A DNA stretch of 24,000 nucleotides from Oscillospiraceae bacterium (GTDB lineage Bacteria; Bacillota; Clostridia; Oscillospirales; Oscillospiraceae): positions 17,299 through 41,298 of the forward strand of contig JAYFPO010000021.1 in assembly GCA_034927685.1 (NCBI GenBank), written 5' to 3'. Below, piece by piece: positions 1 through 23,219 of the stretch. The notes below the pieces were generated by a model. It searched no databases, was not told the DNA's origin, and saw nothing but the letters and a program-made list of their open reading frames with translations. Positions within the stretch are counted from its first letter, which is position 1. Each line of letters opens with the position of its first letter. Made by a program: the position numbers and the translations under genes.

Positions 1-450
1 GACGCACTCGGCAACGATCCGGCATTTCTCCCACCGACCTTTATTACAGGGATTGCCCCGCAATACACGGCAGGCGACGGCGCAAAGAAAGCGGCAGGCA
101 GCGCTGAAGCGAAACGCGCGCCGACGACCAGGATACAAGCCACCGAAGCGCAGCCATAACGGAAGGCGCGTTGGAAACAGGCTGCAGATTGAAGTAATTT
201 CGGCATCGCAGAGATCAAAACGCAGCATCCTTGCCGCACTGTGCAGACCCCCGCCGATTCTAAGCCGCTCTGTTGCTTGAAGGGTCGGCTTTGGGGCTGC
301 CGGTCGCGCCGATGGACGGCAGTTTCCTCTTTCCCGCTCCGAGGTGATTCGGAGACCGCAAAACGAGCGGAAGCGTCACGGGGAACGGGAACCATGCCCC
401 GTACGATTGTGCGGGACTGCCCGGTTTGGAAGCAGGATCAATTCTCTCTC

Positions 451-511
451 TTTCGAAAACAAAAAGCTGCCGCAGAGCCGAACGGTCCTGACCGTTTTGG
501 CCCTGCGGCAG
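451..511 (-). terminator. Rho-independent terminator closing the minus-strand surface-glycan operon
   Basis: CTGCCGCAG (467-475) and CTGCGGCAG (503-511) are reverse complements, with an inner stem AACGGTC/GACCGTT. On the minus strand the hairpin is followed by CTTTTTGTTTTCG (466-451). It begins 9 nt after the stop of the 520-873 CDS. Confidence 0.6.
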
Positions 512-519
512 CCCTGTGG

Positions 520-873
520 TTATCGGATCGCCGGGCGCGGGCGCAAATAGAAGAGAACGCCCGCCACGGCCAGCGCGGCGCCGACCGGCCAATAGACGCG
601 CACCAGCGGGACTGTGGTGCCGTAGATTTCGAATACGCCCCGCAGGCAGCAGCCCACCGTCAGGGTGGCGACGCCCGCCCGGTAGAGGGCGGCGGGCAGC
701 GGACCCGGCCGCCGCGCACGCGGCAGCACGGAAAGCAGCAGATAGGGCAAAAAGCCGAGCAGCAGTGGGAAGAGGAACAGGTAGACCATGTAGGGCGATT
801 CCACGCCGTGGCTGAAGTGCTCGTAAACCCCGCTGAAGAAGCCGCAGAAGACGGTGATCCAGAGGGCGGTCAT
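520..873 (-). CDS. Small integral membrane protein, unknown function
   Basis: The track ORF 520-912 starts at a TTG that overlaps the upstream gene by 17 nt, so the first ATG (873, MTALWITVF...) is preferred. The product of about 117 aa is mostly hydrophobic stretches (about four TM-like segments). No family motif recognised. Confidence 0.55.
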   Translation of the reverse strand: MTALWITVFCGFFSGVYEHFSHGVESPYMVYLFLFPLLLGFLPYLLLSVLPRARRPGPLPAALYRAGVATLTVGCCLRGVFEIYGTTVPLVRVYWPVGAALAVAGVLFYLRPRPAIR

Positions 874-895
874 CGCCCGTCTTTGCAGCGCTTTT

Positions 896-1843
896 CTATC
901 CGATGTAGACAATGTCGCTCACACTCCGTTCTTTGATCGTCCGGCCGTCTGTGGTCGGGTCGTTGAGGACAGTTCCGCAAAACACCATGGTGGAAGAGCC
1001 GCCGCCGTCAAGGTTGTAGGCGGTCTGCACGCCGAGAGTCTGCATAAATTCGGCCAACTGGTACAGCGACAGCCCTTCGCTCTCGCTCGTCCGGCCGTCC
1101 GAGACGACCATGACATAGTGGAGGCTGTCAATGACGCCGATGGCGGTTCTGGGGTTGCTGGTCATGGATTTGTCCACCTCCGTGCTTGTGCCCACGGAAA
1201 CTTCACCATCCGTCAACAGCGCAGGTCCGAAGGAGAGCACCTGCTGCGCGCCCTGCGCCAGCAGTTCCTCTGCGGTCACGTCTCCCTCCAATATTGTGGA
1301 ACAGGAACCGTCCGCCCAGATCACCAGGTCCTGCTGCTCGTCGTCGGAGGAGGAATTGCGGTAGAGCACGCCGTTTCGGATCACATAGCCGCTGCGCACG
1401 CCGTAGTAGTCGCCGTTGATCGCCAGGATCGCGCCCACGTCCGAGGCGATTGAGGAGGCAGTTTCCGTGATGTTCTTGCCGTAGGTGCTCTGGGCGAAGG
1501 CGGTTTGCAGACTGTCGGCGCTCTCCAGCGTGATGTCCGCCACATAGATGTTCGTGTCGTACTCCCGGTAGGTCGTGATCGTAATGGAGATCCCGTTTCC
1601 GTCGTAGGAGGTGTCCGTCACGGTCACAGCCGTTTCCGTCGCGCGATCTGTTTCGCTCTCGGTGCTGCTGCCCGTATTGTTCAGGGCGGTAGACTGCGCC
1701 GCAGTCTCGTCGGAGGTGTCCGCCATGCTTTGAGGGACAACCTGATATGCCCGCGGGATCACGAGCGCGTCCAGCAGCACATAGGCCGTAAAGGCCAGCA
1801 GCAGGACAAAATAGAGGAGGGAGGCGAGTTTGATTCGCTTCAT
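896..1843 (-). CDS. Phosphodiester glycosidase family (DUF2233/NAGPA-like) exported protein
   Basis: N-terminal signal anchor (LASLLYFVLLLAFTAYVLL), then AINGDYYG, GPALLTDGEV, NPRTAIGV..VVSDGR and NLDGGGSSTM motifs typical of this family. AGGAGG lies upstream and the ATG abuts the stop of the GT2 gene. Confidence 0.8.
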   Translation of the reverse strand: MKRIKLASLLYFVLLLAFTAYVLLDALVIPRAYQVVPQSMADTSDETAAQSTALNNTGSSTESETDRATETAVTVTDTSYDGNGISITITTYREYDTNIYVADITLESADSLQTAFAQSTYGKNITETASSIASDVGAILAINGDYYGVRSGYVIRNGVLYRNSSSDDEQQDLVIWADGSCSTILEGDVTAEELLAQGAQQVLSFGPALLTDGEVSVGTSTEVDKSMTSNPRTAIGVIDSLHYVMVVSDGRTSESEGLSLYQLAEFMQTLGVQTAYNLDGGGSSTMVFCGTVLNDPTTDGRTIKERSVSDIVYIG

Positions 1844-2896
1844 TTATCCCGCCTCCTTTGGCGTGCGGAAGATCCAGAACCGCTGGGCAAGGAAGCTCAG
1901 CGTAAAAAAGGTCAGCTCCGTCAGCAGCTTGGCCGCAAACCGGTTCCAGCCGAGCAGGTTAACCAAAGCGCTCAGCAGCAGCGTGTTTCCGAGCAGGATG
2001 CAGGCAGCCACCAGAAAGTACTGCGCGCCGGTTTTGAGCGCGCTGTCCTGATTCCGAAATACCAGGCGCTTGTTGATCGTGAAATTCGTGGCTGCGCTGA
2101 CAATGCGTGCCGTGACGTTGGAGACCGGAACGCTGACAGCAGTGCCGAGGCCGTTCAGTGCGACCACAAGAATGCTGTAGAGGCCGTAGTCCACAAGAAA
2201 CCCCGTCAGCGAGGAGGCCGCGAATTTGAAAAATTTTCCATAGACCAGATAGGAATCGCGGATCGTGCGGAAATGGGAGCTCTGATTGCCGCTTAGATAG
2301 ATCGTCTCGATGGGTTCCTCCCGCATCGGGATGCCGAGCTGCGGGCTCTGCAGGAGCATATTCATCTCGTATTCATAGCGTTCGCCGGGAATTTGCAGCA
2401 GCGTGGGGATCTGCGCCGCCGAGAAGGCGCGCAGGCCGGTCTGCGTATCGCTGACGCGCACGCCGGTGGAGAGGCGGTAGACCGTCCTTGTGACGGTGTT
2501 GCCGAATTTACTGCGCAGCGGCGTTCCCTTGCCGAAGCCGCGGACGCCGAGCACCAGCGCGTCCGGCTCCGCCTGCGCGCGGCGCGCGACCTTCCAGGCG
2601 TCGGAGACCGTGTGCTGGCCGTCGGCGTCCAGCGTGACGACGGTACTGTCCGCCGGGGCATAGGCCAGCAGATGGGAGAGTCCCAGCTTGAGCGCGTAGC
2701 CCTTGCCGCGGTTTTCCGCGTAGGAGAGCACCTCCGCCAAGGGTGCGAGGGAAGAAAACACATCCCGGTAGGCGGCGCCGCTGCCGTCGTCCACCACCAG
2801 GACGGAAAACCCGGAGGCAGCCAACTGTCCGGCAACCTCAAGCAGCACCGGCTCCGGCTCATAGGCGGGAATCAGCGCGTAGATGGAATCGGCCAT
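1844..2896 (-). CDS. Bifunctional family-2 glycosyltransferase / GtrA-like membrane domain protein
   Basis: The N-terminal half has a GT-A pattern (IPAYEPE, VVDDGS, TLDADGQH). The C-terminal ~130 aa has four hydrophobic helices with a GtrA-like pattern (FKFAASSLTGFLVDYGLY...INKRLVF). RBS AGGGGGAG is upstream of the ATG at 2896. Confidence 0.85.
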   Translation of the reverse strand: MADSIYALIPAYEPEPVLLEVAGQLAASGFSVLVVDDGSGAAYRDVFSSLAPLAEVLSYAENRGKGYALKLGLSHLLAYAPADSTVVTLDADGQHTVSDAWKVARRAQAEPDALVLGVRGFGKGTPLRSKFGNTVTRTVYRLSTGVRVSDTQTGLRAFSAAQIPTLLQIPGERYEYEMNMLLQSPQLGIPMREEPIETIYLSGNQSSHFRTIRDSYLVYGKFFKFAASSLTGFLVDYGLYSILVVALNGLGTAVSVPVSNVTARIVSAATNFTINKRLVFRNQDSALKTGAQYFLVAACILLGNTLLLSALVNLLGWNRFAAKLLTELTFFTLSFLAQRFWIFRTPKEAG

Positions 2897-2996
2897 TGAC
2901 AGGCTCCCCCTTTCTCGGATTGGATGTCCTTAGTTTACGACAGGATTGTTTCGCAATTCGGAAGGGAGGGTGAAGATTTTGTGAAAAATCATGGAA

Positions 2997-3036
2997 ACAC
3001 GGTCGTGCGGGCCGCTCCCGGTCCGCACGACCGTGT
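2997..3036 (-). terminator. Stem-loop terminator after the TIM-barrel::ligase gene
   Basis: Perfect 14-bp stem ACACGGTCGTGCGG (2997-3010) / CCGCACGACCGTGT (3023-3036), 21 nt downstream of the stop at 3058. The minus-strand T-run (TTTTT) is offset by about 7 nt, so efficiency is uncertain. Confidence 0.5.
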
Positions 3037-3057
3037 TTGATCGCTGATTTCCCCCGC

Positions 3058-5577
3058 TCAGGGGGTTTCGTTTCCCTTCGCGGTGTCGATGCCAGCCGCG
3101 TTTTCCAGATGCAGGCGCGCAATCGCATCCTCGCGCATCTTGTATTTCAGGATTTTCCCCGCGGCGTTCATGGGGAAAGCGTCCACAAACTCGATATACT
3201 TCGGCACCTTATGCCGCGCCATGCTGGCTTTGATGTAGTCGAGCAGCTCCTGCTCCGTGACGCTGCCGGACTGCTTCAGGATGACGCAGGCCATGGCCTC
3301 CTCGCCGTACTTTTTGTCCGGCACGCCGACCACCTGCACATCCCGGACCGCCGGATGGGTATAGATGAATTCCTCGATCTCCTTGGGGTAGATGTTCTCG
3401 CCGCCGCGGATAATCATATCCTTCAGGCGGCCCGTGATCCGGTAGTTGCCGTCCTCGTCCCGGCAGGCCAGGTCGCCGGAATGGAGCCAGCCCTCGCGGT
3501 CCACGGTGTCCCGCGTGGCCTCCGGCATTTTGTAGTAGCCCTTCATGGTGTTGTAGCCCCGGGAGCAGAACTCGCCGTTCACGCCCGCCGCCACCGCTTC
3601 CCCGGTCTCCGGGTCGATGACCTTACACTGGACATGCGGGAAGTCGTAGCCGACGGTCTCTGTGCGCAGCGCGAGCGGATCGTCCCAGGCGGACATGGTG
3701 CTGCCGGGCGCGGACTCCGTCTGGCCGTAGACGCTGACGATGCCGGTCATGTTCATCTCACTTGGCTGCGCGGCCCGGCGCATGAGCTCCGCCGGACAGC
3801 CGGAGCCGGCCATGATGCCCGTGCGCATGTGGGAAAAGTCGGTCTTCCGGTAGTCGGGATGGCTGAACATGGCGATGAACATGGTGGGCACGCCGTTGAA
3901 GCAGGTGATCCGCTCCTGGTTGACGCAGGCCAGCGACGACTTCGCGGAAAAATAGGGCAGCGGACAGAGCGTCGCGCCGTGGGTCATGCACGAGGTCATG
4001 GAGAGAACCATGCCGAAGCAGTGGAACATCGGCACCTGGATCATCATTCGGTCCGCCGTGGAGAGATCCATGCGGTCGCCGATGCACTTGCCATTGTTGA
4101 CCACGTTGTAGTGGGTCAGCATGACGCCCTTGGGGAAGCCGGTGGTGCCGGAGGTGTACTGCATATTGCAAACATCGTCCGCATGCACCCGCGCCGCCAT
4201 TCTGGCCACTTCCTCCCGGGGGACCAGATCCGCCCGCTCCATGGCCTCATCAAAGGTCAGGCAGCCGGGCTGCCGGAAGCCGACGGTGATGACGTTGCGG
4301 AGGAACGGCAGGCGCTTGCAGTGGAGCGGTGCGCCGGGCTTACTGCTCCCAATTTCCGGGCAGAGCTCGTTGATGGTCGCCCGGTAATCGGAGTCCAGAC
4401 AGGATTCGATCATGACGAGCGTGTGCGTGTCGGACTGCCGGAGCAGATACTCCGCCTCATGGATCTTATAGGCCGTGTTGACCGTCACCAGCACCGCGCC
4501 GATCTTCGTGGCGGCCCAGAAGGTCAGATACCACGCGGGCACGTTGGTGGCCCAGATGGCCACTTTGCCGCCGGCCCGGACGCCCATGGAGATGAGCGCG
4601 CGCGCGAAGGTATCCACATCCTCGCGGAACTCCTCATAGGTCCTCGTGTAGTCGAGCGTCGTATACTTGAAGGCATACTGGTCCGGGAACTCCTCCACCA
4701 TCCGGTCCAGCACCCGGGAAAAGGTCAGGTCGATCAGCTCATCCTTCTTCCAGACGTACCGGCCCGTGTGGGCGTGGTTGTCATACAGGTCCTTTTTCTT
4801 GCCGCGGGGATTGTCGAACCTGTGCATATAGTTCACGAAGTGCGGGAAAATAACGTCCTTTTCCTGTAGGTCCCCCATCCATTCCGGCTTCCACTCCAGC
4901 GAGATAAAGCCGTCATAGTTGATGGAGGAGAGGGCGCGCATCATCTCGGCAACCGGCAGATTGCCCTCGCCGATCAGGTTATAGGTGTCCCTGTCGTCGG
5001 AGTCCCGCAGGTGGACATGGCGCACATAGGCGCCGAGATTCTTGATCGTCGCGTCCGCGCTCTCGCCGTGGTCCCGGTAGGGGTGGTGCATATCCCAGAG
5101 GGCCGCGAGCTGGTCGCAGGCAAATTCGTCCATCAGCGCGCGGAGCCGCGCCGTGTCGGCGTAGATGCCGCTGGTCTTCAGCAGCAGCACCGGGCCCAGC
5201 GCCTCCGCCGCGGGCAGAAGCTCCCGCAGCGCCGCGCGGACCCGCGCCTCGTCGTCGCAGAGCGCGACGCATGACACGCAGGGTACCTGCAGATCGCGCG
5301 CCAGCTCCAGCAGATTCAGGAGCGTCCGCACCGCGTCCCCGTCCGCGGATACGTCGCAGGAGGTATCCAGGCAGGAAATCCGGATCTGCTTTTCCCGCAG
5401 CAGGCGGACCGTGGCCGCGGCGGTAACTTTGTGGAGCGGGCCGCCTCGCTCAAACCATTCCGGCCTTTTCTGAACATTATACAGCTCGACGCCGCCGAAG
5501 CGCATCTCCTGCGCGGTATCCAGCAGTTCTTCCCAACGCAGGGCCTCCCAGCCTCTTGTGGAAAAGGAGAGATTCAT
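3058..5577 (-). CDS. Fusion protein: xylose-isomerase-like TIM barrel (N-terminal) :: adenylate-forming acyl-CoA ligase (C-terminal)
   Basis: 839-aa ORF with GAGGAGG RBS. Its ATG overlaps the upstream stop (ATGA at 5574-5577). Residues 1-~250 resemble the AP_endonuc_2/sugar-phosphate-isomerase TIM barrel (HVHLRD, FISLEWK). Residues ~280-839 carry ligase motifs YTSGTTGFPKGVMLTH, VYGQTES, GRLKDMIIRGGENIYP and AAGKILK. Confidence 0.85.
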   Translation of the reverse strand: MNLSFSTRGWEALRWEELLDTAQEMRFGGVELYNVQKRPEWFERGGPLHKVTAAATVRLLREKQIRISCLDTSCDVSADGDAVRTLLNLLELARDLQVPCVSCVALCDDEARVRAALRELLPAAEALGPVLLLKTSGIYADTARLRALMDEFACDQLAALWDMHHPYRDHGESADATIKNLGAYVRHVHLRDSDDRDTYNLIGEGNLPVAEMMRALSSINYDGFISLEWKPEWMGDLQEKDVIFPHFVNYMHRFDNPRGKKKDLYDNHAHTGRYVWKKDELIDLTFSRVLDRMVEEFPDQYAFKYTTLDYTRTYEEFREDVDTFARALISMGVRAGGKVAIWATNVPAWYLTFWAATKIGAVLVTVNTAYKIHEAEYLLRQSDTHTLVMIESCLDSDYRATINELCPEIGSSKPGAPLHCKRLPFLRNVITVGFRQPGCLTFDEAMERADLVPREEVARMAARVHADDVCNMQYTSGTTGFPKGVMLTHYNVVNNGKCIGDRMDLSTADRMMIQVPMFHCFGMVLSMTSCMTHGATLCPLPYFSAKSSLACVNQERITCFNGVPTMFIAMFSHPDYRKTDFSHMRTGIMAGSGCPAELMRRAAQPSEMNMTGIVSVYGQTESAPGSTMSAWDDPLALRTETVGYDFPHVQCKVIDPETGEAVAAGVNGEFCSRGYNTMKGYYKMPEATRDTVDREGWLHSGDLACRDEDGNYRITGRLKDMIIRGGENIYPKEIEEFIYTHPAVRDVQVVGVPDKKYGEEAMACVILKQSGSVTEQELLDYIKASMARHKVPKYIEFVDAFPMNAAGKILKYKMREDAIARLHLENAAGIDTAKGNETP

Positions 5578-6992
5578 ACTTCCGCCTCCTCATAGACGAT
5601 TTTGTTGAGCGCGCTCAGGTAGGCCAGGATGCTGGCCCCCAGAATATCGGTGGAAATGCCGCGGCCGGAATAGAGCTTGCCGTTCGAGCGGAGCTTGACC
5701 ACGGTTTGGCCCATGGCCTCGCGGCCCTCGGTGACGGCCTGAATCTGGAAGTCGTCCAGCTCGTAGTGGCGGCCGGCGATCTGCTCGATGGCCAGGAACG
5801 CGGCGTCAATGGGGCCGTCGCCGACGGAGATGCCCTCCAGCACCCGATCCTGCCGGCGCAGCTTCATATGCGCCGTCGCGGTGATGATATTGCCGGTGTT
5901 GATGACGTAGCTCTCCATCTTATAGGTGGGCGGCACCTGTAGGGCCGCCGCGGCCACGATGGCGTCCAGCTCCTTGGAGCCGACCCGCTCCTTGCGGTCG
6001 GCGATCCGGCAAAACGCCTCGTAGACCTTGACGCCGTCCTCCTCGGAGAGATCATAGCCCAGCCGGGCCACGGCCTTCAGGACCGCGCTCATCTCGTCGT
6101 GGCTGGTCAGGGTCACGCTCTCGCCGCTCTCCTCCACGCCGTTGTCAAAGGGCGAATTCTTGCTGCGGTTCGTCTGGCACATCCAGACGATCTGGCTGAG
6201 AATGCGTTTCATCTCCGTCATGCGGACCGCGCAGCAGGCGTCGAATTTGTCCCCTTTGGCCGCCAGGACCCGGGCCACATTCTCCAGCGCCGCCGTACCC
6301 ACGGGATAGGAGGCCACCTTGACCTCCCCCGCCCCGCAGCGCACGGCCGCAATGGCGCAGGAATCGGCCATGGACAGCGTGTCGGCGCAGGAGACGCCCA
6401 GACAGACGCCCCGCAGCGCGGGCACGGCCGCGTAGAGCTTTTGCAGGAACGCCGCGAACTCATCGGGCAGCATGGCCCCGGCGGTGTCGCAGACCGTGAC
6501 GGTGGAGGCGCCTGCCTCGATGGCGGCCGAAACGGCCGCGTGCAGGAATTCCTCGTCGCTGCGGGTTGCGTCATCGGCCAGGAACTCCACGTCCCCGCAG
6601 CACGCCCGGCAGGCGGCAACGGTCTCGCGGATGGCCGAAAGCATCGCCTCCGGCTTTTTGTGGTGCAGGTATTCCATCTGCACGGGGCTGACCGGCGCCG
6701 CCACCTGAAGCCGGGGACACGCCGCCTCACGCAGGGCGTTCCAGGTCGTCTGCACGCTCTCCTCGGAAAGCTGCACCGGCACGGCCACGGCGCAATGCCG
6801 GACCGCCGCCGCCACGGACTTGACGAGCAGGCTGTCGATCTTCGGATTCTGAATGGTCTCCAGCTCGACGACGGACACGCCCAGCCGGTCCAACAGCTTG
6901 GAAAGCTCAATTTTCTCTTTAAAGGTCAGGGTAAAGCCGGCGGCTCTCCCCGTCTGTTTCATGGTGACGTCGCTGATTCTGATTTCGTTCAT
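5574..6992 (-). CDS. 2-isopropylmalate synthase-like protein with degenerate catalytic site and intact LeuA-type C-terminal regulatory domain
   Basis: 472 aa with AAGGAGAG RBS. The HMGL-like N-terminal half aligns to LeuA. DTTLRDGEQ is replaced by DVTMKQTGR and HxHNDxG by SCADTLS. DT.G (CDTAG) and E..DD..R (EFLADDATRS) are kept. The C-terminal GDGPIDAAFLAIEQI...GREAMGQTVVKLRSNGKLYSGRGISTDILGASILAYLSALNKI matches the LeuA dimerisation/regulatory domain. Confidence 0.8.
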   Translation of the reverse strand: MNEIRISDVTMKQTGRAAGFTLTFKEKIELSKLLDRLGVSVVELETIQNPKIDSLLVKSVAAAVRHCAVAVPVQLSEESVQTTWNALREAACPRLQVAAPVSPVQMEYLHHKKPEAMLSAIRETVAACRACCGDVEFLADDATRSDEEFLHAAVSAAIEAGASTVTVCDTAGAMLPDEFAAFLQKLYAAVPALRGVCLGVSCADTLSMADSCAIAAVRCGAGEVKVASYPVGTAALENVARVLAAKGDKFDACCAVRMTEMKRILSQIVWMCQTNRSKNSPFDNGVEESGESVTLTSHDEMSAVLKAVARLGYDLSEEDGVKVYEAFCRIADRKERVGSKELDAIVAAAALQVPPTYKMESYVINTGNIITATAHMKLRRQDRVLEGISVGDGPIDAAFLAIEQIAGRHYELDDFQIQAVTEGREAMGQTVVKLRSNGKLYSGRGISTDILGASILAYLSALNKIVYEEAEV

Positions 6993-7020
6993 CGCCGTAT
7001 CTCTCCTTTTTGTATGGAAT

Positions 7021-7296
7021 AAAAAAACGTCCCTGAGGCTATTTTGCCTCAGGGACGAACTTTCCTGTTCGCGGTACCACCCTGCTTATTCCCGCCGCGC
7101 GGGAATCCCTCTCGGACTCCGATAAGTCCATAGCCTGTAACGGGGCGGCCGGGTTCCATTACTCGCGGAGCTTTCACGGAACCGACTCGGGAAGCAGAAT
7201 GCAGCTCTCTTCGGTACCGGCTCGCACCACCCGCCGGCTCTCTGAAACGCGAACTGAGAACGCAAATTTCCGTCATCGTCTTTTGCAGTTTAGATT
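7021..7296 (-). promoter_or_regulatory. T-box riboswitch leader (specifier read as CUG, Leu; tentative)
   Basis: Read on the minus strand: K-turn GATGACGGAA...TTCCCGAGTC, AG bulge CAGAGAG (rc of 7238-7244), distal loop CGGGTGGTGCGA, F-box-like CCGTTAC. T-box core GGGTGGTACCGCG is the rc of 7070-7082. Terminator CGTCCCTGAGG/CCTCAGGGACG (7028-7057) is followed by T7 (7027-7021). The triplet next to the basal helix is CUG (rc of 7195-7197), followed by C rather than the usual purine. Confidence 0.85.
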
Positions 7297-7302
7297 TCTG
7301 TC

Positions 7303-7331
7303 ATTTAAGCACAGATTGGTCCGTTTGTCAA
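7303..7331 (-). promoter_or_regulatory. Sigma-A-type promoter for the Leu T-box operon
   Basis: Minus strand reads TTGACA (rc of 7326-7331), a 17-nt spacer, then TTAAAT (rc of 7303-7308), just upstream of the T-box Stem I. Confidence 0.5.
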
Positions 7332-7378
7332 CGGGTAATTTGAAGAAAAATTTGGAGGCGCGTTTCTGAAAAAAGGAT

Positions 7379-7407
7379 TTGACATTTTGGATGCGGCATG
7401 ATATAGT
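7379..7407 (+). promoter_or_regulatory. Sigma-A-type promoter for the Ile T-box unit
   Basis: TTGACA (7379-7384), a 17-nt spacer, then TATAGT (7402-7407). Divergent from the minus-strand promoter, with 47 bp between the two -35 hexamers. Confidence 0.55.
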
Positions 7408-7412
7408 TGGCC

Positions 7413-7689
7413 CAACATAAAAAAGGCTTTGACGAAGACGGTTGGATTCTCAAATGTTCAGAGAGCCGGTGGTTGGTGTGAACCGGTGATTTTGAGTCCT
7501 CAGACCTATCACTTCCGAGCTGGAGACCCGAACGGCCAAAGGCCAAGTAGATATCTCCCGTACGCCCGCGTTAAGGGATAGGACTTATCGGAGTCTGAAG
7601 TGGCGGCAGGAATGCCGCAAATTGAGTGGTACCGCGGGTTATGCAGTTTTTGCAGCTCGTCTCAAGAATATCTTGGGGCGAGCTTTTTT
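7413..7689 (+). promoter_or_regulatory. T-box riboswitch leader (specifier read as AUC, Ile)
   Basis: K-turn TTGACGAAG...CTTCCGAGC, AG bulge CAGAGAG (7459-7465), distal stem CCGG/CCGG with loop TGGTTGGTGTGAA. AUC (7508-7510) plus A lies directly 5' of the basal helix. T-box core GAGTGGTACCGCG is at 7624-7636. Terminator GCTCGTCTCAAG/CTTGGGGCGAGC (7655-7683) is followed by T6 (7684-7689). Confidence 0.9.
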
Positions 7690-7715
7690 GTCGCCCGGAA
7701 TCAGGAGGATTCACA

Positions 7716-9983
7716 ATGAAAGAACAGACCAGCAGCAGCCAGCTCATGGAGGTCGCCCTCCGGATCCGCGAAATGCGGGAGATCGACGGCTACACCGCCC
7801 AGGAGATGGCACAGAAAACAGAGGTCAGCACAGAGCTCTATCAGTCCTATGAGGACGGCCTCACCGATCTGCCCTTTACCTTTATTCACAAGTGCGCCAA
7901 AACCTTCGGCATTGAAATTGCCGACCTGCTGGAGGGGCAGAGCGCCCATCTCTCCTCCTATACCGTGACGCGCCGCGGCACGGGCAGCCAGACCGCCAAG
8001 GAAAACGGCATCTCCATTGTCAACCTGGCCCCGCGCTTCCGCCAGAAGCTGGCAGAGCCGTACTGGGTCACCTACGACTATGACAAGGAGCAGGAGCAGC
8101 GCCCCATCCACCAGACCACCCACGGCGGGCAGGAGTTCGACCTGATTCTCAGCGGCCGCCTCAAGGTGCAGATCGGCAGCCACACCGAGTTTCTGGAAGA
8201 GGGCGACAGCATTCTTTATAACTCCTCCATCCCCCACGGCATGATCGCGGTCGGCGGCACGAGCTGCCAGTTCTGCGCCGTGATTTTGCCGGGCGAGGAG
8301 GTCGAGGAGACGGCTGTCCGCCGGAGCCTGCTCCCCGAAAAGCGCGCCGAGCCCTACGTCTGTCAGGAGTTCGTCGACGCCGCGGAGAATGCCGACGGGA
8401 CGCTGAATTCCATCTATTTTAAAAACGAGGACACGTTCAACTTTGCCTTTGACATCGTCGACGCTCTTGGCAAAAAATACCCGAAAAAGCGGGCCATGCT
8501 CCACCTCGACAAGCATCAGGTCGAGCGGGATTTCTCCTTTGAGGACATGAAGAAGGAGTCCGCCCGGGCCGCCAACTACTTTAAGGCGCTCGGCATCCAG
8601 CGGGGCGACCGCGTCATGCTGGTCCTGAAGCGGCACTACCAATTCTGGTTTGCCATCCTGGGACTCCACAAGCTGGGCGCCATCGCCATTCCCGCCACCA
8701 ACCAGCTCCTCGAGCACGACTTCGTCTACCGCTTTGACGCAGCGGGCGTCAGCACCATTCTCTGCACTGCGGACGGCGATACCGCCGACTGTGTGGACGC
8801 GGCCGCGCAGCAGTGCCCCCAGCTCCATACGAAAATCCTGGTGGGCGGCAAGCGGGACGGCTGGCACGACTTCGACGCCGAGTGTCCCATGTACAGCAGT
8901 CACTTCCCCAGAACGGACGACAGCCCCTGCGGCGACGACCCCATGCTGATGTTCTTCACCTCCGGCACCACCGGCTACCCGAAGATCGCCACGCACAACT
9001 ACAAATATCCGCTCGGTCACTACATCACCGCCAAATACTGGCACTGCGTCTCCCCCAACGGTCTCCACTTCACCATCTCCGAAACCGGCTGGGGCAAAGC
9101 CCTCTGGGGCAAGCTATACGGACAGTGGCTCTGCGAGGGCGCGGTCTTTACCTACGATTTCGACCGGTTCGACGCCGTGGAGATCCTCCCGATGTTTGCG
9201 AAGTACCACATCACCACCTTCTGTGCGCCTCCCACCATGTACCGCATGATGATCCGGCAAGATCTCAGCGTGTACGATTTCAGTTCCCTGGACCACATCA
9301 CCACCGCGGGCGAGGCGCTGAATCCGGAGGTATACCGGCTCTTCGAGAAACAGACCGGCCTGCAAATCATGGAGGGCTACGGTCAGACCGAGCTGACGCT
9401 CACCATCGGCAACCTGATCGGCACGCAGCCCCGCCTTGGCTCCATGGGCAAGGCCATGCCGCTCTACGACATCCACCTGCTTGACCCGGACGGCAACCAC
9501 TGCGGCGCGGGCGCCAGCGGCGAAATCTGCGTGAAAACCGACGAGAAACTGCCCTGCGGCCTCTTTATGGGCTACTACCGCGACGAAAAGCGGACCAAAG
9601 ACGTCTGGCACGACGGCTACTACCACACCGGCGACGTGGCCTGGCGGGACGAGGACGGTTACTACTGGTATGTGGGGCGGGTGGACGACGTCATCAAGTC
9701 CTCCGGCTACCGGATCGGGCCTTTTGAGATTGAGAGCGTCATCACCGAGCTGCCCTATGTCCTCGAGTGCGGCGTCTCCGCCGCGCCGGATGAGGTCCGC
9801 GGGCAAGTCGTCAAGGCCAGCATCGTGCTGGTCCCGGGCACGGAACCCTCGGAAGCGCTGAAAAAAGAAATTCAGGATTACGTCAAGCACCACACCGCAC
9901 CCTATAAGTATCCGCGCATCGTGGTGTTCCGCGACGACCTGCCCAAGACCATCAGCGGCAAGGTCATCCGAAATCAGCTCTAA
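7716..9983 (+). CDS. Fusion protein: XRE-type HTH + cupin sensor domain :: medium-chain-type (ACSM-like) acyl-CoA synthetase, paralog A
   Basis: The track ORF begins at 7626 inside the T-box terminator. The ATG at 7716 (MKEQTSSS) has an AGGAGG RBS. Residues ~10-72 are an HTH_3-like domain and ~95-191 a cupin (HGGQEFDLILSG...GDSILYNSSIPHGM). Residues ~215-755 are a ligase (FNFAFDIVD, FFTSGTTGYPK, GYGQTE, GRVDDVIKSSGYRIGPFEIE, PKTISGKVIR). There is no stop or internal start at the domain junction. Confidence 0.9.
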   Translation: MKEQTSSSQLMEVALRIREMREIDGYTAQEMAQKTEVSTELYQSYEDGLTDLPFTFIHKCAKTFGIEIADLLEGQSAHLSSYTVTRRGTGSQTAKENGISIVNLAPRFRQKLAEPYWVTYDYDKEQEQRPIHQTTHGGQEFDLILSGRLKVQIGSHTEFLEEGDSILYNSSIPHGMIAVGGTSCQFCAVILPGEEVEETAVRRSLLPEKRAEPYVCQEFVDAAENADGTLNSIYFKNEDTFNFAFDIVDALGKKYPKKRAMLHLDKHQVERDFSFEDMKKESARAANYFKALGIQRGDRVMLVLKRHYQFWFAILGLHKLGAIAIPATNQLLEHDFVYRFDAAGVSTILCTADGDTADCVDAAAQQCPQLHTKILVGGKRDGWHDFDAECPMYSSHFPRTDDSPCGDDPMLMFFTSGTTGYPKIATHNYKYPLGHYITAKYWHCVSPNGLHFTISETGWGKALWGKLYGQWLCEGAVFTYDFDRFDAVEILPMFAKYHITTFCAPPTMYRMMIRQDLSVYDFSSLDHITTAGEALNPEVYRLFEKQTGLQIMEGYGQTELTLTIGNLIGTQPRLGSMGKAMPLYDIHLLDPDGNHCGAGASGEICVKTDEKLPCGLFMGYYRDEKRTKDVWHDGYYHTGDVAWRDEDGYYWYVGRVDDVIKSSGYRIGPFEIESVITELPYVLECGVSAAPDEVRGQVVKASIVLVPGTEPSEALKKEIQDYVKHHTAPYKYPRIVVFRDDLPKTISGKVIRNQL

Positions 9984-10026: not shown

Positions 10027-10310
10027 CAATAAAGGCTTTGACGGAGAGGGCCGGATACATCCCGTATCTCAGAGAAATGGCGGTTGGTGCGAGCCATGGA
10101 TACGCGTACCCGGTTTGTAGCTCCCGAGCCGGAGAGAAGAACGCGAAAGCCAGTAGACCTCTCCCGTGTCAGCCGCGTCAGAGCTTAGGGCTTATTGGAG
10201 CCCAATGAGGGGTGTTCGCTGTAAGACGGACACAATTTGAGTGGTACCGCGGGTTGCATTCGCAGCTCGTCTCAAAGAATCATTTCTTTGAGACGAGCTG
10301 TTTGTTTTTG
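10027..10310 (+). promoter_or_regulatory. T-box riboswitch leader (specifier read as GUA, Val)
   Basis: K-turn TTGACGGAG...CTCCCGAGC, AG bulge CAGAGAA (10071-10077), distal stem ATGGC/GCCAT with loop GGTTGGTGCGA. The 7-nt 3' specifier-loop side is TTTGTAG, with GUA at 10118-10120 followed by G. T-box core GAGTGGTACCGCG is at 10240-10252. A perfect 17-bp terminator CAGCTCGTCTCAAAGAA/TTCTTTGAGACGAGCTG (10264-10301) is followed by TTTGTTTTT. Confidence 0.9.
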
Positions 10311-12637: not shown

Positions 12638-13327
12638 ATGGAACCAAAACGCCTGACTCTGTTTGCCGGACACTACGGCAGCGGGAAAACCAATATTGCG
12701 GTCAATTACGCCGTCTATTTAAGGCGGCAGGGGAAGTCCGTGACCATCGCCGATCTGGACATCGTAAACCCCTACTTCCGCACCAAGGACAGCGCCGCGC
12801 TGCTGGAGCAGCTCGGCATCTCGCTGATCTGCTCGCAGTTCGCCAACAGCAACCTGGATATGCCCGCCATGCCCAAGGAGGCCTACGAACTGGTGGACGA
12901 CCGGCAGGAATACGGCGTGCTGGACATCGGCGGCGACGACCGCGGCGCGCTGGCGCTCGGCCGGTACACCCCGGCGATTCTGGAGGAAAACAACTACGAG
13001 ATGCTGTTCGTCATCAACCGTTCCCGCCCCCTGACCAGAACGCCGGAAGACACAATGGACGTGCTGCGGGAAATTGAGACCGCCTGTCGCCTGCCCTTCA
13101 CGGGCATCGTCAACAACACGAATCTGGGCCGCCAAACCACCGCGGAGGATGTGCTCCGCAGCCGGGACTACGCGGAGGAAATCTCCCGCGTCTCCGGCCT
13201 GCCGCTCAGAATGACCACCGTCAACCACCCGCTGCAACAAGCGCTGGAAGAAGATATCCCGAATCTGTTCCCGCTCCATCTGCAGGAGCAGTACTATGAA
13301 ATCAGAATGGAGGAAACCCATGGCTAA
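12638..13327 (+). CDS. P-loop NTPase (MinD/ParA/CooC-like SIMIBI class), unknown role
   Basis: The ATG at 12638 lies 4 nt after the paralog B stop. The longer track ORF (12188) is an out-of-frame overlap. Walker A FAGHYGSGKTN, then DLDIVNPYF and a Walker-B-like LDIGGDDRG. The 3' end overlaps the next gene by 8 nt. Confidence 0.7.
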   Translation: MEPKRLTLFAGHYGSGKTNIAVNYAVYLRRQGKSVTIADLDIVNPYFRTKDSAALLEQLGISLICSQFANSNLDMPAMPKEAYELVDDRQEYGVLDIGGDDRGALALGRYTPAILEENNYEMLFVINRSRPLTRTPEDTMDVLREIETACRLPFTGIVNNTNLGRQTTAEDVLRSRDYAEEISRVSGLPLRMTTVNHPLQQALEEDIPNLFPLHLQEQYYEIRMEETHG

Positions 13328-13526
13328 GCTGACATTTCGGGAAGAATTATGCAAGGGCTGCGGCCTCTGCGTAAATGCCTGTCCAAAGGGCATTCTCACG
13401 CTCTCCCGGACCAGACTCAATCAGAAGGGGCTCTCGCCCGTAGAACTGACCCAGCCCGACCTGTGCATCGGCTGCGCGTTCTGCGCCACCATGTGCCCGG
13501 ACTGCGTCATCACGGTAGAAAAATAG
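13320..13526 (+). CDS. 2-oxoacid:ferredoxin oxidoreductase delta subunit (2x[4Fe-4S] ferredoxin)
   Basis: 68 aa starting at the ATG at 13320 (GGAGGA RBS). Two CxxCxxCxxxCP motifs are present (CKGCGLCVNACP, CIGCAFCATMCP). Confidence 0.85.
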   Translation: MAKLTFREELCKGCGLCVNACPKGILTLSRTRLNQKGLSPVELTQPDLCIGCAFCATMCPDCVITVEK

Positions 13527-13541
13527 GAAAGGAGCACGTTC

Positions 13542-14600
<1,059 letters not shown>

Positions 14601-14602
14601 GT

Positions 14603-15340
14603 ATGGTAGTATTTGAAAAACCAAAGGCGTTAACCGACGCTGTTCTGCACTACTGCCCCGGCTGCACCCACGGCATCGTCCACCGTTTGGTGGCGGAGGC
14701 CATTGACGAGCTGGGCATCGAAGGAAAGACCATCGGCATCGCCCCCGTCGGCTGCGCCGTGCTGGCCTACAACTATTTCACCTGCGACATGCTGGAGGCC
14801 GCCCATGGCAGAGCGCCCGCCGTCGCCACCGGCGTCAAGCGCTCCCTGCCCGACCATGTGGTCTTCACCTATCAGGGCGACGGCGACCTGGCCTCCATCG
14901 GCATGTGCGAGACCGTACACAGCGCCGCCCGCGGCGAAAACATCACCATTATCTTCATCAACAACGCGATCTATGGCATGACCGGCGGCCAAATGGCCCC
15001 CACCTCCCTGGTGGGGCAGGTCACGCAGACCTCTCCCTACGGCCGCGACGCCGCCACGCAGGGCTATCCCATCCGCGTCTGCGAAATGCTCAGCGAGCTG
15101 GACGGCCCCTCCTATCTGGAGCGCGTCACCGTCAACAGCGTCAAAAACGTCAAAAATGCCAAGAAGGCGATCAAAAAGGCCTTCCAGAATCAGCTCGACG
15201 GCAAGGGCTTCTCGCTGGTCGAGGTTCTTTCCTCCTGCCCCACCAACTGGGGCCTCACGCCGCAGAAGGCGCTCGAGTGGATCGACGAGAAGATGATTCC
15301 CTACTATCCGCTTGGCGTTTACCGGGACAAGGAGGGTTAA
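14603..15340 (+). CDS. 2-oxoacid:ferredoxin oxidoreductase beta subunit (TPP-binding)
   Basis: Start at ATG 14603 (MVVFEKPK), 2 nt after the alpha stop. The longer track ORF overlaps alpha. Cys motif HYCPGCTHG and TPP motif GDGDLASIG...[11 protein letters not shown]. Confidence 0.9.
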
Positions 15341-15343
15341 GCC

Positions 15344-15883
15344 ATGGCTGAACATCAAATCGTAATCGCGGGCTTCGGCGGACAGGGTCTGCTGTTCTCC
15401 GGCAAGGTGCTGGCCTACGCCGGCCTCATGGAGGACCGCCAGATCAGCTGGCTGCCGTCCTACGGCCCCGAAATGCGCGGCGGCACCGCCAACTGCAATG
15501 TCATCCTCAGCGACAGCCCCGTCGGCTCCCCCATCGTCGACCACCCCGACATTCTGATGGTCATGAACGCCCCGTCCCTCGACAAATACGAGGACGCGGT
15601 GCGGCCCGGCGGCATGATCTTCCTGGACTCCACCCTGATCGGCCGGAAGGTCAACCGGTCCGACGTCACCGCCTGCTACATTCCCGCCACGCAGATGGCG
15701 AACGACATGGGCGCGCCCGCGCTGGCCAATATGATTCTGCTGGGCGCGCTGGTGCGGCACACCGCCTGCGTCTCCGACGAGATGCTGGAGGCCGGACTGC
15801 GGAAGGTCGTCCCCGCCCGGAAGGCCGACATGATCGACCTGAACCTCAAGGCCCTGCTGGCAGGAAAGGATTTCTCGGAATGA
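15344..15883 (+). CDS. 2-oxoacid:ferredoxin oxidoreductase gamma subunit
   Basis: 179 aa. VIAGFGGQGLLFSGKVLA and SYGPEMRGGTANC are typical of the gamma subunit/domain. The start lies 3 nt after the beta stop. Confidence 0.9.
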   Translation: MAEHQIVIAGFGGQGLLFSGKVLAYAGLMEDRQISWLPSYGPEMRGGTANCNVILSDSPVGSPIVDHPDILMVMNAPSLDKYEDAVRPGGMIFLDSTLIGRKVNRSDVTACYIPATQMANDMGAPALANMILLGALVRHTACVSDEMLEAGLRKVVPARKADMIDLNLKALLAGKDFSE

Positions 15884-16665
15884 AAATTTCCTGCATCCAG
15901 ATGGATATGCAGCTTGGCCTTCCCGATGAAAACTTCGGGAAGGCCGCCCGGCTGATCGAAGCCGCCATGGCGGAGGCGCCCGACGTGATCGTGCTGCCTG
16001 AGACGTGGAACGTGGGCTTTTTCCCGAAGGATGCCCTCGCGTCCCTCTGCGACCGGGACGGCGCGCGGGTCCGGACTGAGCTGGGTACGCTGGCAAAAAA
16101 ACACGGGGTCAATCTCGTGGCCGGCAGCGTCGCCAACCTGCGGGGCGACAAGGTATACAATACCGCCCTGGTCTTTGACCGCGGCGGCGCCTGCGTCGCC
16201 GCCTACGACAAGACGCACCTCTTCACCCCCCTGGGCGAGGACCGGTTCTTTACCCCCGGCGACCACCTGTGCAAGTTTACGCTGGACGGCGTCCCCTGCG
16301 GCCTCATCATCTGCTACGACATCCGGTTCCCGGAGCTGACGCGCACCATGGCCCTCAGCGGCATGGACCTGATGTTCGTGGTATCCCAGTGGCCGAAGGT
16401 GCGGATTTCCCACCTGCGGGCGCTGACCACGGCCCGCGCCATTGAAAACCAGATGTTCCTCTGCTGCTGCAACTCCTGCGGCACGGCGGGCAAGACCGTC
16501 TACGGCGGCGCCTCCGCGATTCTGGACCCCTGGGGCGAAACTCTGGCGCTGGCGGGCGAAGGCGAGGAAATTCTCTCCGCCGACTGCGACTTCTCCATCG
16601 TAACCCACATCCGCGAGACCATCAATGTCTTTGCAGACCGGAAAAGCGGCCTGTACCAGCTATAA
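15880..16665 (+). CDS. Carbon-nitrogen hydrolase (nitrilase superfamily; omega-amidase/YafV-like)
   Basis: 261 aa. The Glu-Lys-Cys triad contexts are present (LPETWN, YDKTHLF, IICYDIRFPE). The ATG overlaps the gamma subunit stop (ATGA at 15880-15883). Confidence 0.85.
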   Translation: MKISCIQMDMQLGLPDENFGKAARLIEAAMAEAPDVIVLPETWNVGFFPKDALASLCDRDGARVRTELGTLAKKHGVNLVAGSVANLRGDKVYNTALVFDRGGACVAAYDKTHLFTPLGEDRFFTPGDHLCKFTLDGVPCGLIICYDIRFPELTRTMALSGMDLMFVVSQWPKVRISHLRALTTARAIENQMFLCCCNSCGTAGKTVYGGASAILDPWGETLALAGEGEEILSADCDFSIVTHIRETINVFADRKSGLYQL

Positions 16666-16682
16666 GAAAGAAGGAACTTACC

Positions 16683-17771
16683 ATGTCCTACCATTTTCCC
16701 GTCACCAGAACCACAAGCCCCAAGCCCCGTCCCGAGGATGTGAGCAAGCTGGGCTTTGCCAAATACTTCACGGACCACATGTTCGTCATGGAGTACGACG
16801 AGGGCCAGGGTTGGCACGACGGCCGCGTGGTCCCGCACGCGCCGTTTCTGATCGAGCCGGCCTCCGCCGTGCTGCATTATGCGCAGATGATGTTCGAGGG
16901 TATGAAGGCCTACCGCCGCCCCGACGGCACGATCCAGCTCTTCCGCCCCGACATGAACATCGCCCGGATGAAGCGCACCTGCGAGCGGATGTGCATGCCG
17001 GAGATTCCCGGCGATCTGTTCCTGGCCGCCGTCGAAGCCGTCCTCCACGAGGACCGCGACTGGGTCCCCTCCGAGCCAGGCACCGCCATGTATATCCGGC
17101 CCTTCCTGTTCGGCGACGAGGTCTCCTTCTCCGTCCTGCCGGCGAAGCATTATAAGTTCCTCATCATTCTGAGCCCGACCGGCTCCTACTACGCAGCGAA
17201 CAACGGCGGCCTGGTCACCACCCGGATCTTCGTCGAGGACGAATACATCCGCGCCGCGCCCGGCGGCACCGGCTACGCCAAGGTCGGCGGCAACTACGGC
17301 GGCGGCATGCGCGCCTCCCAGAAAGCCCTGCAATACCAGTGCAAGGACGTGCTGTGGCTGGACGCCATGGAGCACAAGTACGTCGAGGAAATCGGCACCT
17401 CCAACGCCTTCTTCCGCATCGCGGACGAGGTCATCACCGCCCCGCTGGACAGCGGCACGATTCTGCCCGGCATCACGCGCAACTCCGTCATTCAGCTGTT
17501 AAAAAGCTGGGGCGTCCGGATCTCCGAGCGCAGGCTCTCGATTGACGACGTCATGGCCGCCTCGAAAGACGGCAGTCTGCAGGAGGTCTTCGCCTCCGGC
17601 ACCGCCGCGGTCATCTCCCCGATCGGCTTTTTGAGCTACCTCGACGAAGATCATCCGGTCGCCGACACCAAGGTCGGCCCCATCGCCCAGAAGCTCTACG
17701 ACACGCTCTACGGCATCCAAACCGGCACCCTGCCCGACACGATGGGCTGGACCTATCCGCTCGGTTTTTGA
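16683..17771 (+). CDS. ilvE: Branched-chain amino acid aminotransferase (fold-type IV, long form)
   Basis: 362 aa. MFEGMKAYR, IRPFLFG, the PLP-lysine context GGTGYAKVGGNYG, GTSNAFF, ILPGITR and GTAAVISPI are typical of YbgE/YwaA-type BCATs. Confidence 0.9.
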   Translation: MSYHFPVTRTTSPKPRPEDVSKLGFAKYFTDHMFVMEYDEGQGWHDGRVVPHAPFLIEPASAVLHYAQMMFEGMKAYRRPDGTIQLFRPDMNIARMKRTCERMCMPEIPGDLFLAAVEAVLHEDRDWVPSEPGTAMYIRPFLFGDEVSFSVLPAKHYKFLIILSPTGSYYAANNGGLVTTRIFVEDEYIRAAPGGTGYAKVGGNYGGGMRASQKALQYQCKDVLWLDAMEHKYVEEIGTSNAFFRIADEVITAPLDSGTILPGITRNSVIQLLKSWGVRISERRLSIDDVMAASKDGSLQEVFASGTAAVISPIGFLSYLDEDHPVADTKVGPIAQKLYDTLYGIQTGTLPDTMGWTYPLGF

Positions 17772-19459: not shown

Positions 19460-19497
19460 GAAGACACCTCCATACTATTCGCAAAATGACTTGGGTC

Positions 19498-19842
19498 CTA
19501 TCCGCGGTCCTTTTTTTTAGTTGCCTCCAGCTCTCCGTCCGCTTCCAGACTCATGTGCCGGAAGCATTTGTCCAGAAGGATGGAGACCGCGACCGCAGTA
19601 AGCACGCAGACCACAACGATGGCAAAGTACCACTGCGGAATTCCCAGAATATAGATATAATTGCTCGGGTCGCCTCCGCCGATCACAAAGACGCAGAAGA
19701 GCATCGCTGCCGCGAAAACCACAAAGATCACGCAGCAGAAAAGAAATTCTCTCCTACAAACTTGAAAGCGCGGGTCAATATCGACGTCTTTTACATCATA
19801 GTCTCTGCTCTGCGGGTCAATTTTTTTCTTTACGTCGCTCAT
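19498..19842 (-). CDS. YhdT-like (DUF997) small membrane protein, the usual partner of PanF-type symporters
   Basis: The track ORF starts at TTG 19848. The ATG at 19842 sits 7 nt after AGGAGGG. It has two hydrophobic helices and lies immediately upstream of the symporter, as with yhdT-panF in enterobacteria. Confidence 0.65.
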   Translation of the reverse strand: MSDVKKKIDPQSRDYDVKDVDIDPRFQVCRREFLFCCVIFVVFAAAMLFCVFVIGGGDPSNYIYILGIPQWYFAIVVVCVLTAVAVSILLDKCFRHMSLEADGELEATKKKDRG

Positions 19843-19854
19843 AATCAATCCCTC

Positions 19855-21129: not shown

Positions 21130-21132
21130 GGT

Positions 21133-22731: not shown

Positions 22732-22969
22732 TACGATCGCCTCCAATTCTACAGTCCGGTCCGGCGAATCAGGCGTTTTCCCATCACAGGCGTCATGCCG
22801 GACATCGTTGCTTTGCAGCTTGGGACAAGGTCTTATGCGGCGTTAAGGACTCCGCGCGCTGGAATCCTGGCCGATTTACCTCGCTCCGCAGGAAAGAATC
22901 CGGGTCCCTTCTGGTTTCACCATAGCACAAGTCCTCCCAAATATGGTAGTTCTTATTTTGATAGAGGTT

Positions 22970-23190: not shown

Positions 23191-23219
23191 GTAATTGACT
23201 TGACGCAGGAGGGCTCAAA

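Follow-up and report, generated by a model that had tools for sequence, protein, structure and literature searches.

A LeuA-like putative pseudoenzyme paired with an acyl-CoA ligase behind a leucine T-box: a candidate leucine-sensing subunit in gut and rumen anaerobes

Several described systems bear on a stretch of 24,000 nucleotides of Oscillospiraceae DNA (contig JAYFPO010000021.1, positions 17,299 to 41,298; hereafter the window), in which a gene for a LeuA-like protein lies next to a gene for an acyl-coenzyme A (acyl-CoA) ligase fusion. LeuA, the type I bacterial 2-isopropylmalate synthase (IPMS) and a DRE-TIM metallolyase, has the same fold and domain order as the LeuA-like protein (HMGL-like barrel, accessory subdomain II, LeuA_dimer domain) and the same ligand-loop motifs of the leucine site, and some leuA genes are also found behind a leucine T-box. 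The LeuA-like protein differs from it in lacking the metal ligands and the Arg-Asp pair, in having its GERAGN motif partly deleted and in being about 40 aa shorter, and its gene always stands beside an acyl-CoA ligase, not beside leuBCD. The HisZ-HisG pair offers an analogy for how such a protein might work: HisZ is an enzyme paralogue that has lost catalysis and senses the end product for the first enzyme of the pathway. Ancestor (HisRS) and partner are different there, and for HisZ both the complex and histidine binding have been demonstrated, whereas the corresponding properties of the LeuA-like protein are predicted here. DmpG-DmpF and AmnG-AmnH are examples of an HMGL-like barrel in a stable complex with a CoA-dependent partner, as is predicted for the present pair; DmpG, however, is an active metal-dependent aldolase with a dehydrogenase as partner and carries no allosteric amino-acid domain.

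It has been known for sixty years that bacteria of the gut and the rumen use isovalerate, 2-methylbutyrate and isobutyrate to make leucine, isoleucine and valine. The formation of leucine by carboxylation of isovalerate is classical rumen physiology, according to the Allison references cited in PMC7356843. This Allison-Bryant route leads from the acid to the acyl-CoA, then through a ferredoxin-dependent oxidoreductase to the 2-oxoacid and finally to the amino acid. The route that we propose for the window has the same steps and its hosts are likewise rumen and gut anaerobes, but the Allison-Bryant route was defined physiologically and ours is predicted from genes. MbcS, the methylbutyryl-CoA synthetase of S. 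aureus, activates 2-methylbutyrate and isobutyrate, matching the isoleucine (Ile) and valine (Val) T-boxes that precede two further ligases of the window (ligases 1 and 2). Unlike MbcS, these two ligases carry N-terminal modules of a helix-turn-helix (HTH) and a cupin domain; MbcS feeds lipid synthesis and not amino acids, and the partner of the LeuA-like protein belongs to another, PRK12583-like ligase clade. The literature searched contained no description of the LeuA-like family, of its pairing with the ligase or of the arrangement of three T-boxes, and it assigned no genes, control logic or LeuA-like subunit to the route from branched-chain acids to amino acids.

By its sequence, the 472-aa LeuA-like protein is a 2-isopropylmalate synthase paralogue that is catalytically dead. 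An earlier model-generated reading of the letters of the window (the sequence-only reading) had aligned it with LeuA along its full length and had noted two replacements in the active site, Lys-Gln for the Arg-Asp of DTTLRDGEQ and Ser-Cys-Ala-Asp-Thr for the His-containing metal motif HCHND. We aligned the protein with the solved LeuA catalytic domains 3ewb and 3rmj and with A4, a genuine LeuA of a related genome whose score exceeds its NCBIfam equivalog cut-off. Both replacements are seen in all of these alignments. The full-length agreement is to be qualified in one respect: the alignment is not gap-free, and ∼30 residues of accessory subdomain I, which in genuine LeuA carry GxNAFxHxSGIHQDG...TYEI, are deleted. 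In DRE-TIM metallolyases the Asp and two His are the metal ligands. In the LeuA-like protein K12-Q13 stand in place of the substrate Arg and the metal Asp, S201-C-A203 occupies the HxH position on strand 7, and both metal-binding His are gone. A five-way alignment that includes genuine LeuA further showed that EAGFP of LeuA has become ELETI and that four residues of the GLGERAGN motif have been deleted. The substitutions R80K and R80A in M. tuberculosis IPMS are listed as abolishing activity (PMC10464499), and the accessory domain of LeuA is indispensable for catalysis (PMC9860122). Because the metal ligands, the Arg and the accessory-domain motif are all gone, Claisen-condensation activity of the LeuA-like protein is very unlikely.

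The fold of the LeuA barrel is kept, and so are accessory subdomain II and the C-terminal allosteric/dimerisation domain. An AlphaFold2 (AF2) model of the protein reached a predicted local distance difference test (pLDDT) score of 90.9, and its sole poor stretch was residues 275-289 (pLDDT <50), in the remnant of subdomain I. Foldseek matched the model to full-length M. tuberculosis LeuA, including the leucine-bound structure 3fig (E about 1e-23), and superposed its barrel on 3ewb with a root-mean-square deviation of 1.7 A and a TM score of 0.93; the model thus bears out the LeuA fold. The motifs GDGPIDAAF, GRGISTDI and TEGREAMG are common to the LeuA-like protein and genuine LeuA, and the first two lie at the N-termini of predicted helices H394-406 and H450-471. 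In the regulatory domain of LeuA, the leucine carboxylate is held between the N-termini of two helices (PMC11057210). A PDB sequence search with the regulatory domain alone as query returned nothing useful. On NCBIfam models the protein scored far under every LeuA, CimA and NifV equivalog cut-off; the best LeuA model, NF002086, gave 303 bits against a cut-off of 532, and TIGR00973 gave 276 against 599. An active LeuA, CimA or NifV was rejected as an identity on the lost motifs together with these scores. Automatic annotation had been expected to call the gene leuA, which turned out not to be the case: no LeuA equivalog cut-off is reached, and the identical protein bears the NCBI name 'alpha-isopropylmalate synthase regulatory domain-containing protein [Oscillospiraceae bacterium]'.

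The LeuA-like protein belongs to a broad family. At NCBI, more than 120 clusters, all of ∼470 aa, are 71-87% identical to it, and the altered motifs ISDVTMKQTG and LGxSCADxLSMAD are 90-98% conserved among 120 close homologues. An exhaustive HMMER search yielded 393 representatives at E <1e-30, and genuine LeuAs (about 505-516 aa) appeared in the same ranking only under about 260 bits. We examined ∼105 full-length diverged representatives of 453-497 aa, with identity down to 34%. In none of them is the HxH pair present (a single His remains in one), all have the deletion in subdomain I, and the metal Asp position is taken by another residue in most, with Asp kept in five. Species genomes with a relative number at least 591. 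The hosts, from gut and rumen, are Oscillospiraceae, Lachnospiraceae, Acutalibacteraceae, Eggerthellaceae/Coriobacteriaceae and Synergistaceae, together with some Bacteroidales metagenome-assembled genomes (MAGs); matches in Bacteroidota and Abditibacteriota MAGs may include mis-binned contigs and were excluded from phylum claims. A decaying pseudogene was ruled out by the intact open reading frame (ORF), by the large conserved family and by the conservation of the altered motifs themselves. The losses are family traits under purifying selection, not decay, and with metal ligands gone, Arg changed to Lys and the accessory motif deleted across the family, the pseudoenzyme call of the sequence-only reading was upheld.

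Mean pairwise identity within the family amounts to 0.33 for the barrel, 0.27 for the linker and 0.57 for the regulatory domain, in line with the earlier remark that the C-terminal domain is well conserved. For three genuine LeuAs in the same alignment the values are 0.42, 0.32 and 0.36, respectively. Since the regulatory domain is the best-conserved part of the family (0.57 vs. 0.33 for the barrel) and not of the genuine LeuAs (0.36 vs. 0.42), constraint has moved to this domain. The ligand-loop motifs GDGPIDA and GxGxSTDI are 80-100% conserved across the family, which has the motifs GDGPIDAAF, TEGREAMG and SGxGxSTDIxxAS in common with genuine LeuA; overall, the regulatory domains of the family and of genuine LeuAs are only about 38% identical.

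The gene downstream encodes a xylose-isomerase-like TIM barrel fused to an adenosine monophosphate (AMP)-forming acyl-CoA ligase. Pfam reported AP_endonuc_2, AMP-binding (E 6.8e-86) and AMP-binding_C (E 5.1e-19) in this protein, and the core motifs of the ligase are intact (YTSGTTGFPKG, YGQTE, SGD, GRLKDMIIRGGENIYP and AGKILK), the C-terminal catalytic Lys included. Its best NCBIfam match was PRK12583, 'fatty acid CoA ligase family', at 677 bits; the NCBI label is only 'AMP-binding protein'. The pairing of the two genes was followed from both sides. The LeuA-like protein led to 84 loci (4 metagenome contigs and 80 GTDB species genomes), in 81 of which the ligase fusion comes directly after the LeuA-like gene; the remaining three contigs end too early. 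When metagenome loci were collected through the TIM domain of the ligase, the LeuA-like gene was found directly upstream in 79 of 80, and the one other contig begins within that gene. In the loci sampled, the pairing is obligate from whichever of the two genes the search set out, and the link to the ligase drawn in the sequence-only reading holds. The ATGA overlap noted in the window was reproduced from the ORF coordinates, and nearly all loci have a spacing between a 4-nt overlap and about 30 nt. The LeuA-like gene is co-transcribed with that of the ligase, and the start/stop overlap points to translational coupling of the two as the usual arrangement.

Xylose-isomerase-like enzymes have a Glu-Asp-His-Glu metal/catalytic tetrad, and the TIM barrel of the ligase keeps most of these positions (D162, H187/H189 and E228); D192 and E204 are conserved as well. 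Position 134, the first canonical Glu, holds Lys in 36 of 71 homologues, the window protein among them, and Glu in 31. An AF2 model of this domain, built on an alignment of lesser diversity, had a pLDDT of 87.4, and a fold search with it returned only generic matches of the sugar isomerase/epimerase type at 13-21% identity. The barrel might serve as a docking site for the dead LeuA.

A T-box had been proposed upstream of the LeuA-like gene, and the Rfam match above the gathering score together with an intrinsic terminator (Table 1) confirmed it. The 5' arm of the terminator overlaps the 3' side of the antiterminator. The T-box core sequence was present in 52 of 85 upstream regions of related loci. 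The specifier was read as the triplet ahead of the final unpaired base in the specifier loop, with the leaders aligned in register, and an automated parser, noisy where several helices fitted, agreed. CTG or CTC stands at this position in essentially all of about 55 homologous leaders, a set that includes leaders from Actinobacteria and Synergistaceae and those of operons L085-L087 of Lachnospiraceae. A true specifier is expected to vary in this way, between synonymous codons for leucine. Wherever the function of the downstream gene was tested, T-box specifiers matched it (PMC2494555). The T-box ahead of the LeuA-like gene is, on the reading of its specifier, leucine-specific, and the LeuA-like gene and ligase behind it would therefore be expressed when tRNA-Leu is uncharged.

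One locus in an Eggerthellaceae MAG (L041, 10001-18546) places the pair at the head of leucine genes: after the LeuA-like gene and ligase come leuC, leuD, a genuine leuA (691 bits vs. the cut-off of 532) and leuB. No T-box core motif was found upstream of the pair in this locus. The dead copy thus coexists with a live LeuA inside a leucine operon.

Two further T-boxes lie in the window, and each of the three (leucine, Ile and Val) precedes its own acyl-CoA ligase. The Ile and Val leaders were found by a permissive Rfam search, both below the gathering score. Their specifiers are conserved across related loci: ATC stands at the specifier position in 30 orthologous leaders of ligase 1, and GTA (6) or GTC (5) in those of ligase 2. 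The leaders also shift the start codons of ligases 1 and 2 to 7716 and 10336, which lie 90 and 99 nt further downstream than the earliest in-frame start given by the ORF finder. Both proteins have an N-terminal XRE-type HTH and a cupin fused to an acyl-CoA synthetase that is already under T-box control, which is unusual. The closest named family of ligases 1 and 2 is MbcS (414 and 407 bits, under the equivalog cut-off of 850). In purified form, MbcS acts on 2-methylbutyrate and isobutyrate and barely activates isovalerate (PMC10026030). This substrate range fits the Ile and Val T-boxes on two MbcS-like ligases; since isovalerate is hardly activated, the leucine branch would need a different ligase clade. 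Likening the dead LeuA to the HTH-cupin modules of ligases 1 and 2 would be consistent with the Ile and Val T-boxes of these ligases.

Downstream of ligase 2 lie genes for a four-subunit 2-oxoacid:ferredoxin oxidoreductase module and a class IV aminotransferase (Table 1). An oxidoreductase was present within 10 kb in 50 of the 84 loci. It is of the four-subunit type in 36, where the module adjoins the LeuA-like/ligase pair, and of the single-chain pyruvate:ferredoxin oxidoreductase (PFOR) type in 14. The single-chain enzyme (about 1,160-1,185 aa) comes directly after the ligase in 14 GTDB loci (e.g., L011, L026, L037, L038, L051 and L078) and occurs in many Lachnospiraceae and other lineages; in L085-L087 (8589-16166) it lies inside the same leucine T-box operon. 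The genes for a P-loop protein and a ferredoxin sit between ligase 2 and the alpha subunit of the oxidoreductase, and the P-loop protein may be a Fe-S maturation or carrier factor for the oxidoreductase. A CN-hydrolase gene directly precedes that of the class IV aminotransferase, and this pairing recurs in several related loci. One idea is that the CN-hydrolase acts as an omega-amidase that pulls glutamine-dependent transamination towards amino-acid synthesis. After the ligase fusion and on the same strand are genes for a GT2+GtrA glycosyltransferase and a NAGPA-like phosphodiester glycosidase (896-2896, minus strand). In locus L001 these two genes occupy a different place on the contig and hence probably do not belong to the LeuA-like/ligase unit. 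At the far end of the window are genes for a sodium:solute symporter, a serine-dehydratase-alpha-like protein and an amidohydrolase (17969-22746, minus strand); the G+C content is 0.51-0.57 in parts of 18000-24000 and about 0.60-0.66 in the ligase locus.

Table 1. Coordinates of the features in the window, with the evidence for each
Feature	Position	Strand	Details and evidence
LeuA-like putative pseudoenzyme	5574..6992	-	472-aa ORF; Pfam, PDB alignments, NCBIfam, AF2, Foldseek
HMGL-like TIM barrel, degenerate active site	6252..6983	-	aa 4-247; Pfam PF00682, E 4.9e-32
LeuA allosteric/dimerisation domain (LeuA_dimer)	5598..5981	-	aa 338-465; Pfam PF08502, E 8.8e-31, covers 3-130 of 131
DVTMKQTGR replacing DTTLRDGEQ	6945..6971	-	aa 8-16; alignments to 3ewb, 3rmj and genuine LeuA A4
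SCADT replacing HCHND	6378..6392	-	aa 201-205; alignments to 3ewb, 3rmj and genuine LeuA A4
Accessory subdomain I remnant	6111..6185	-	aa about 270-294; alignments, low-confidence AF2 stretch
ATGA stop/start overlap of LeuA-like and ligase genes	5574..5577	-	ORF coordinates
Ligase fusion (xylose-isomerase-like TIM barrel + AMP-forming acyl-CoA ligase)	3058..5577	-	839 aa; Pfam, NCBIfam
N-terminal TIM barrel of ligase fusion	4753-5577	-	residues 1-275; Pfam AP_endonuc_2
Leucine T-box leader	7048..7285	-	Rfam RF00230, 98.9 bits vs. gathering 93, full model 1-219
Leucine specifier CUG, then C7194	7195-7197	-	sequence reading
Stem I helix TTCC of leucine T-box	7190-7193	-	sequence reading
Kink-turn (K-turn) GAG of leucine T-box	7186-7188	-	sequence reading
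T-box sequence GGGUGGUACCGCG of leucine T-box	7070-7082	-	sequence reading; agrees with UGGUACC
Intrinsic terminator of leucine T-box	7028..7057	-	12-bp stem, 9 G-C pairs, then TTTTTTT
Ribosome-binding site AAAAGGAGAG	7001-7010	-	upstream of LeuA-like gene
Second T-box (Ile)	7420..7667	+	RF00230, 90.2 bits, E 2e-20, just under gathering
Ile specifier AUC, then A7511	7508-7510	+	sequence reading
Terminator of Ile T-box	7654-7684	+	terminator analysis
HTH-cupin-ligase 1	7716-9983	+	real ATG 7716, after Ile T-box
Third T-box (Val)	10029..10277	+	RF00230, 76.6 bits, E 7e-17, under gathering
Val specifier GUA, then G10120	10117-10119	+	sequence reading
HTH-cupin-ligase 2	10336-12633	+	real ATG 10336, after Val T-box
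Downstream module overall	12650..17771	+	Pfam matches, ORFs
P-loop CbiA/ParA/NUBPL-like protein	12650-13327	+	Pfam
2x[4Fe-4S] ferredoxin, 76 aa	13296-13526	+	Pfam
2-Oxoacid:ferredoxin oxidoreductase alpha/beta/gamma	13542-15883	+	Pfam
CN-hydrolase (nitrilase superfamily)	15880-16665	+	Pfam
Class IV (branched-chain) aminotransferase	16683-17771	+	Pfam

From the gene context and the logic of the carbon skeletons, we predict the following route. The ligase fusion would activate isovalerate to isovaleryl-CoA, the 2-oxoacid:ferredoxin oxidoreductase would reductively carboxylate isovaleryl-CoA to 4-methyl-2-oxopentanoate, and the class IV aminotransferase would convert the latter to leucine. The two MbcS-like ligases would open the same route for 2-methylbutyrate (Ile T-box) and isobutyrate (Val T-box). 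The biosynthetic direction is suggested by the AMP-forming ligases, by the induction of T-boxes on amino-acid starvation and by the aminotransferase in the same cluster; the link to leucine is strengthened by the leucine specifier of the T-box and by the leuC-leuD-leuA-leuB operon of L041. The dead LeuA would dimerise through its regulatory domain, bind leucine there as LeuA does, and pass the signal to the bound ligase, so that fast feedback inhibition would be laid over the slower T-box control. It would work in the manner of HisZ, a dead paralogue of HisRS through which HisG becomes sensitive to histidine. The best explanation we can offer is that the dead LeuA is the leucine-sensing subunit of an isovalerate-activating ligase in an acid-to-leucine route, a reading in which our confidence is evenly balanced. 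We also put forward, tentatively, a more complete picture in which the window holds the so far unassigned gene set of the Allison-Bryant route, with three T-box units (leucine, Ile and Val), each with a ligase, that share the oxidoreductase and aminotransferase, and in which a LeuA stripped of catalysis serves the isovalerate-CoA ligase as a detachable allosteric subunit that senses leucine.

Several points weigh against a leucine-sensing subunit. The T-box already gives leucine control, and an allosteric layer on top of it is plausible and not required. The ligand of the regulatory domain could be other than leucine; the homologous domain of CimA binds isoleucine. The dead barrel is well folded and moderately conserved, and a sensor gives it no role; the N-terminal TIM barrel of the ligase is likewise left unexplained. 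Isovalerate as the substrate of the ligase is a deduction from gene context and carbon skeletons. About a third of the loci have no oxidoreductase within the sequence available, and although roughly half of these loci end ∼1 kb or less from the ligase, the others run 2-7 kb beyond it and none is found there.

As an alternative, the dead LeuA could be an obligate structural or activating subunit that senses no leucine, but stabilises, activates or dimerises the ligase or tethers it to the oxidoreductase for channelling, its regulatory domain serving in dimerisation only. The strict gene pairing fits such a subunit equally well, the ligase carries an extra TIM barrel, and HMGL-like barrels form channelling complexes with CoA-dependent partners, with DmpG-DmpF and AmnG-AmnH among the fold matches. 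Dimerisation alone, however, would hardly be expected to call for the degree of conservation seen in the two ligand-loop motifs, and we regard this explanation as rather unlikely. The barrel could instead have been neofunctionalised for a new, metal-independent catalysis on, or for binding of, an intermediate of the leucine pathway, e.g., isovaleryl-CoA or 2-oxoisocaproate. It is confidently folded in the AF2 model, ISDVTMKQTG is very conserved among close homologues, and some substrate-side motifs of LeuA (DATR, DT[AV]G and VEF) are kept across the family. Yet the former active-site positions are variable in the wide family alignment and form no new constellation of invariant polar residues, of the two halves of the protein the barrel is the less conserved, and the acetyl-CoA and accessory-subdomain elements are deleted; a new function of the barrel is distinctly improbable.

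The remaining two explanations stay closer to LeuA itself. LeuA dimers are domain-swapped, in that the accessory domain and the regulatory domain of one chain cap the active site of the other chain (PMC9860122), and the dead copy might form a heterodimer with genuine LeuA that tunes de novo leucine synthesis while salvage is on. Both genes are in one operon in L041, but this is the only one of the 84 loci with a co-located leuA, whereas co-location with the ligase is universal, and the low identity between the two kinds of regulatory domain also speaks against mixed dimers, which leaves such a partnership very doubtful. That the protein still works as an isopropylmalate, citramalate or homocitrate synthase, with other ligands in use, is scarcely credible: the overall LeuA fold is in favour of it, but the Asp, both His, the Arg, an intact GERAGN and the accessory-domain motif are all missing, the equivalog scores are far below cut-off, and in L041 the operon also contains a genuine LeuA.

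The use of a pseudoenzyme as a regulatory subunit is already known from HisZ; to our knowledge, no such subunit derived from LeuA has been known. If the leucine-sensing reading is true, this would be the first such regulator, and a widespread one in gut and rumen anaerobes. Metagenomes of the human gut and the rumen contain the family in abundance, and one ligase cluster alone has more than 5,000 member sequences. The locus is a concrete, testable gene set with a clear design of three T-boxes with matching specifiers. It bears on the cross-feeding of branched-chain acids, on ruminant nutrition and on how the mis-annotation of LeuA-like proteins in metabolic reconstructions is avoided. The dead LeuA would be an enzyme recycled as the end-product sensor for a different enzyme, linking de novo and salvage leucine synthesis, and gut and rumen anaerobes would probably control leucine synthesis from scavenged isovalerate through it.

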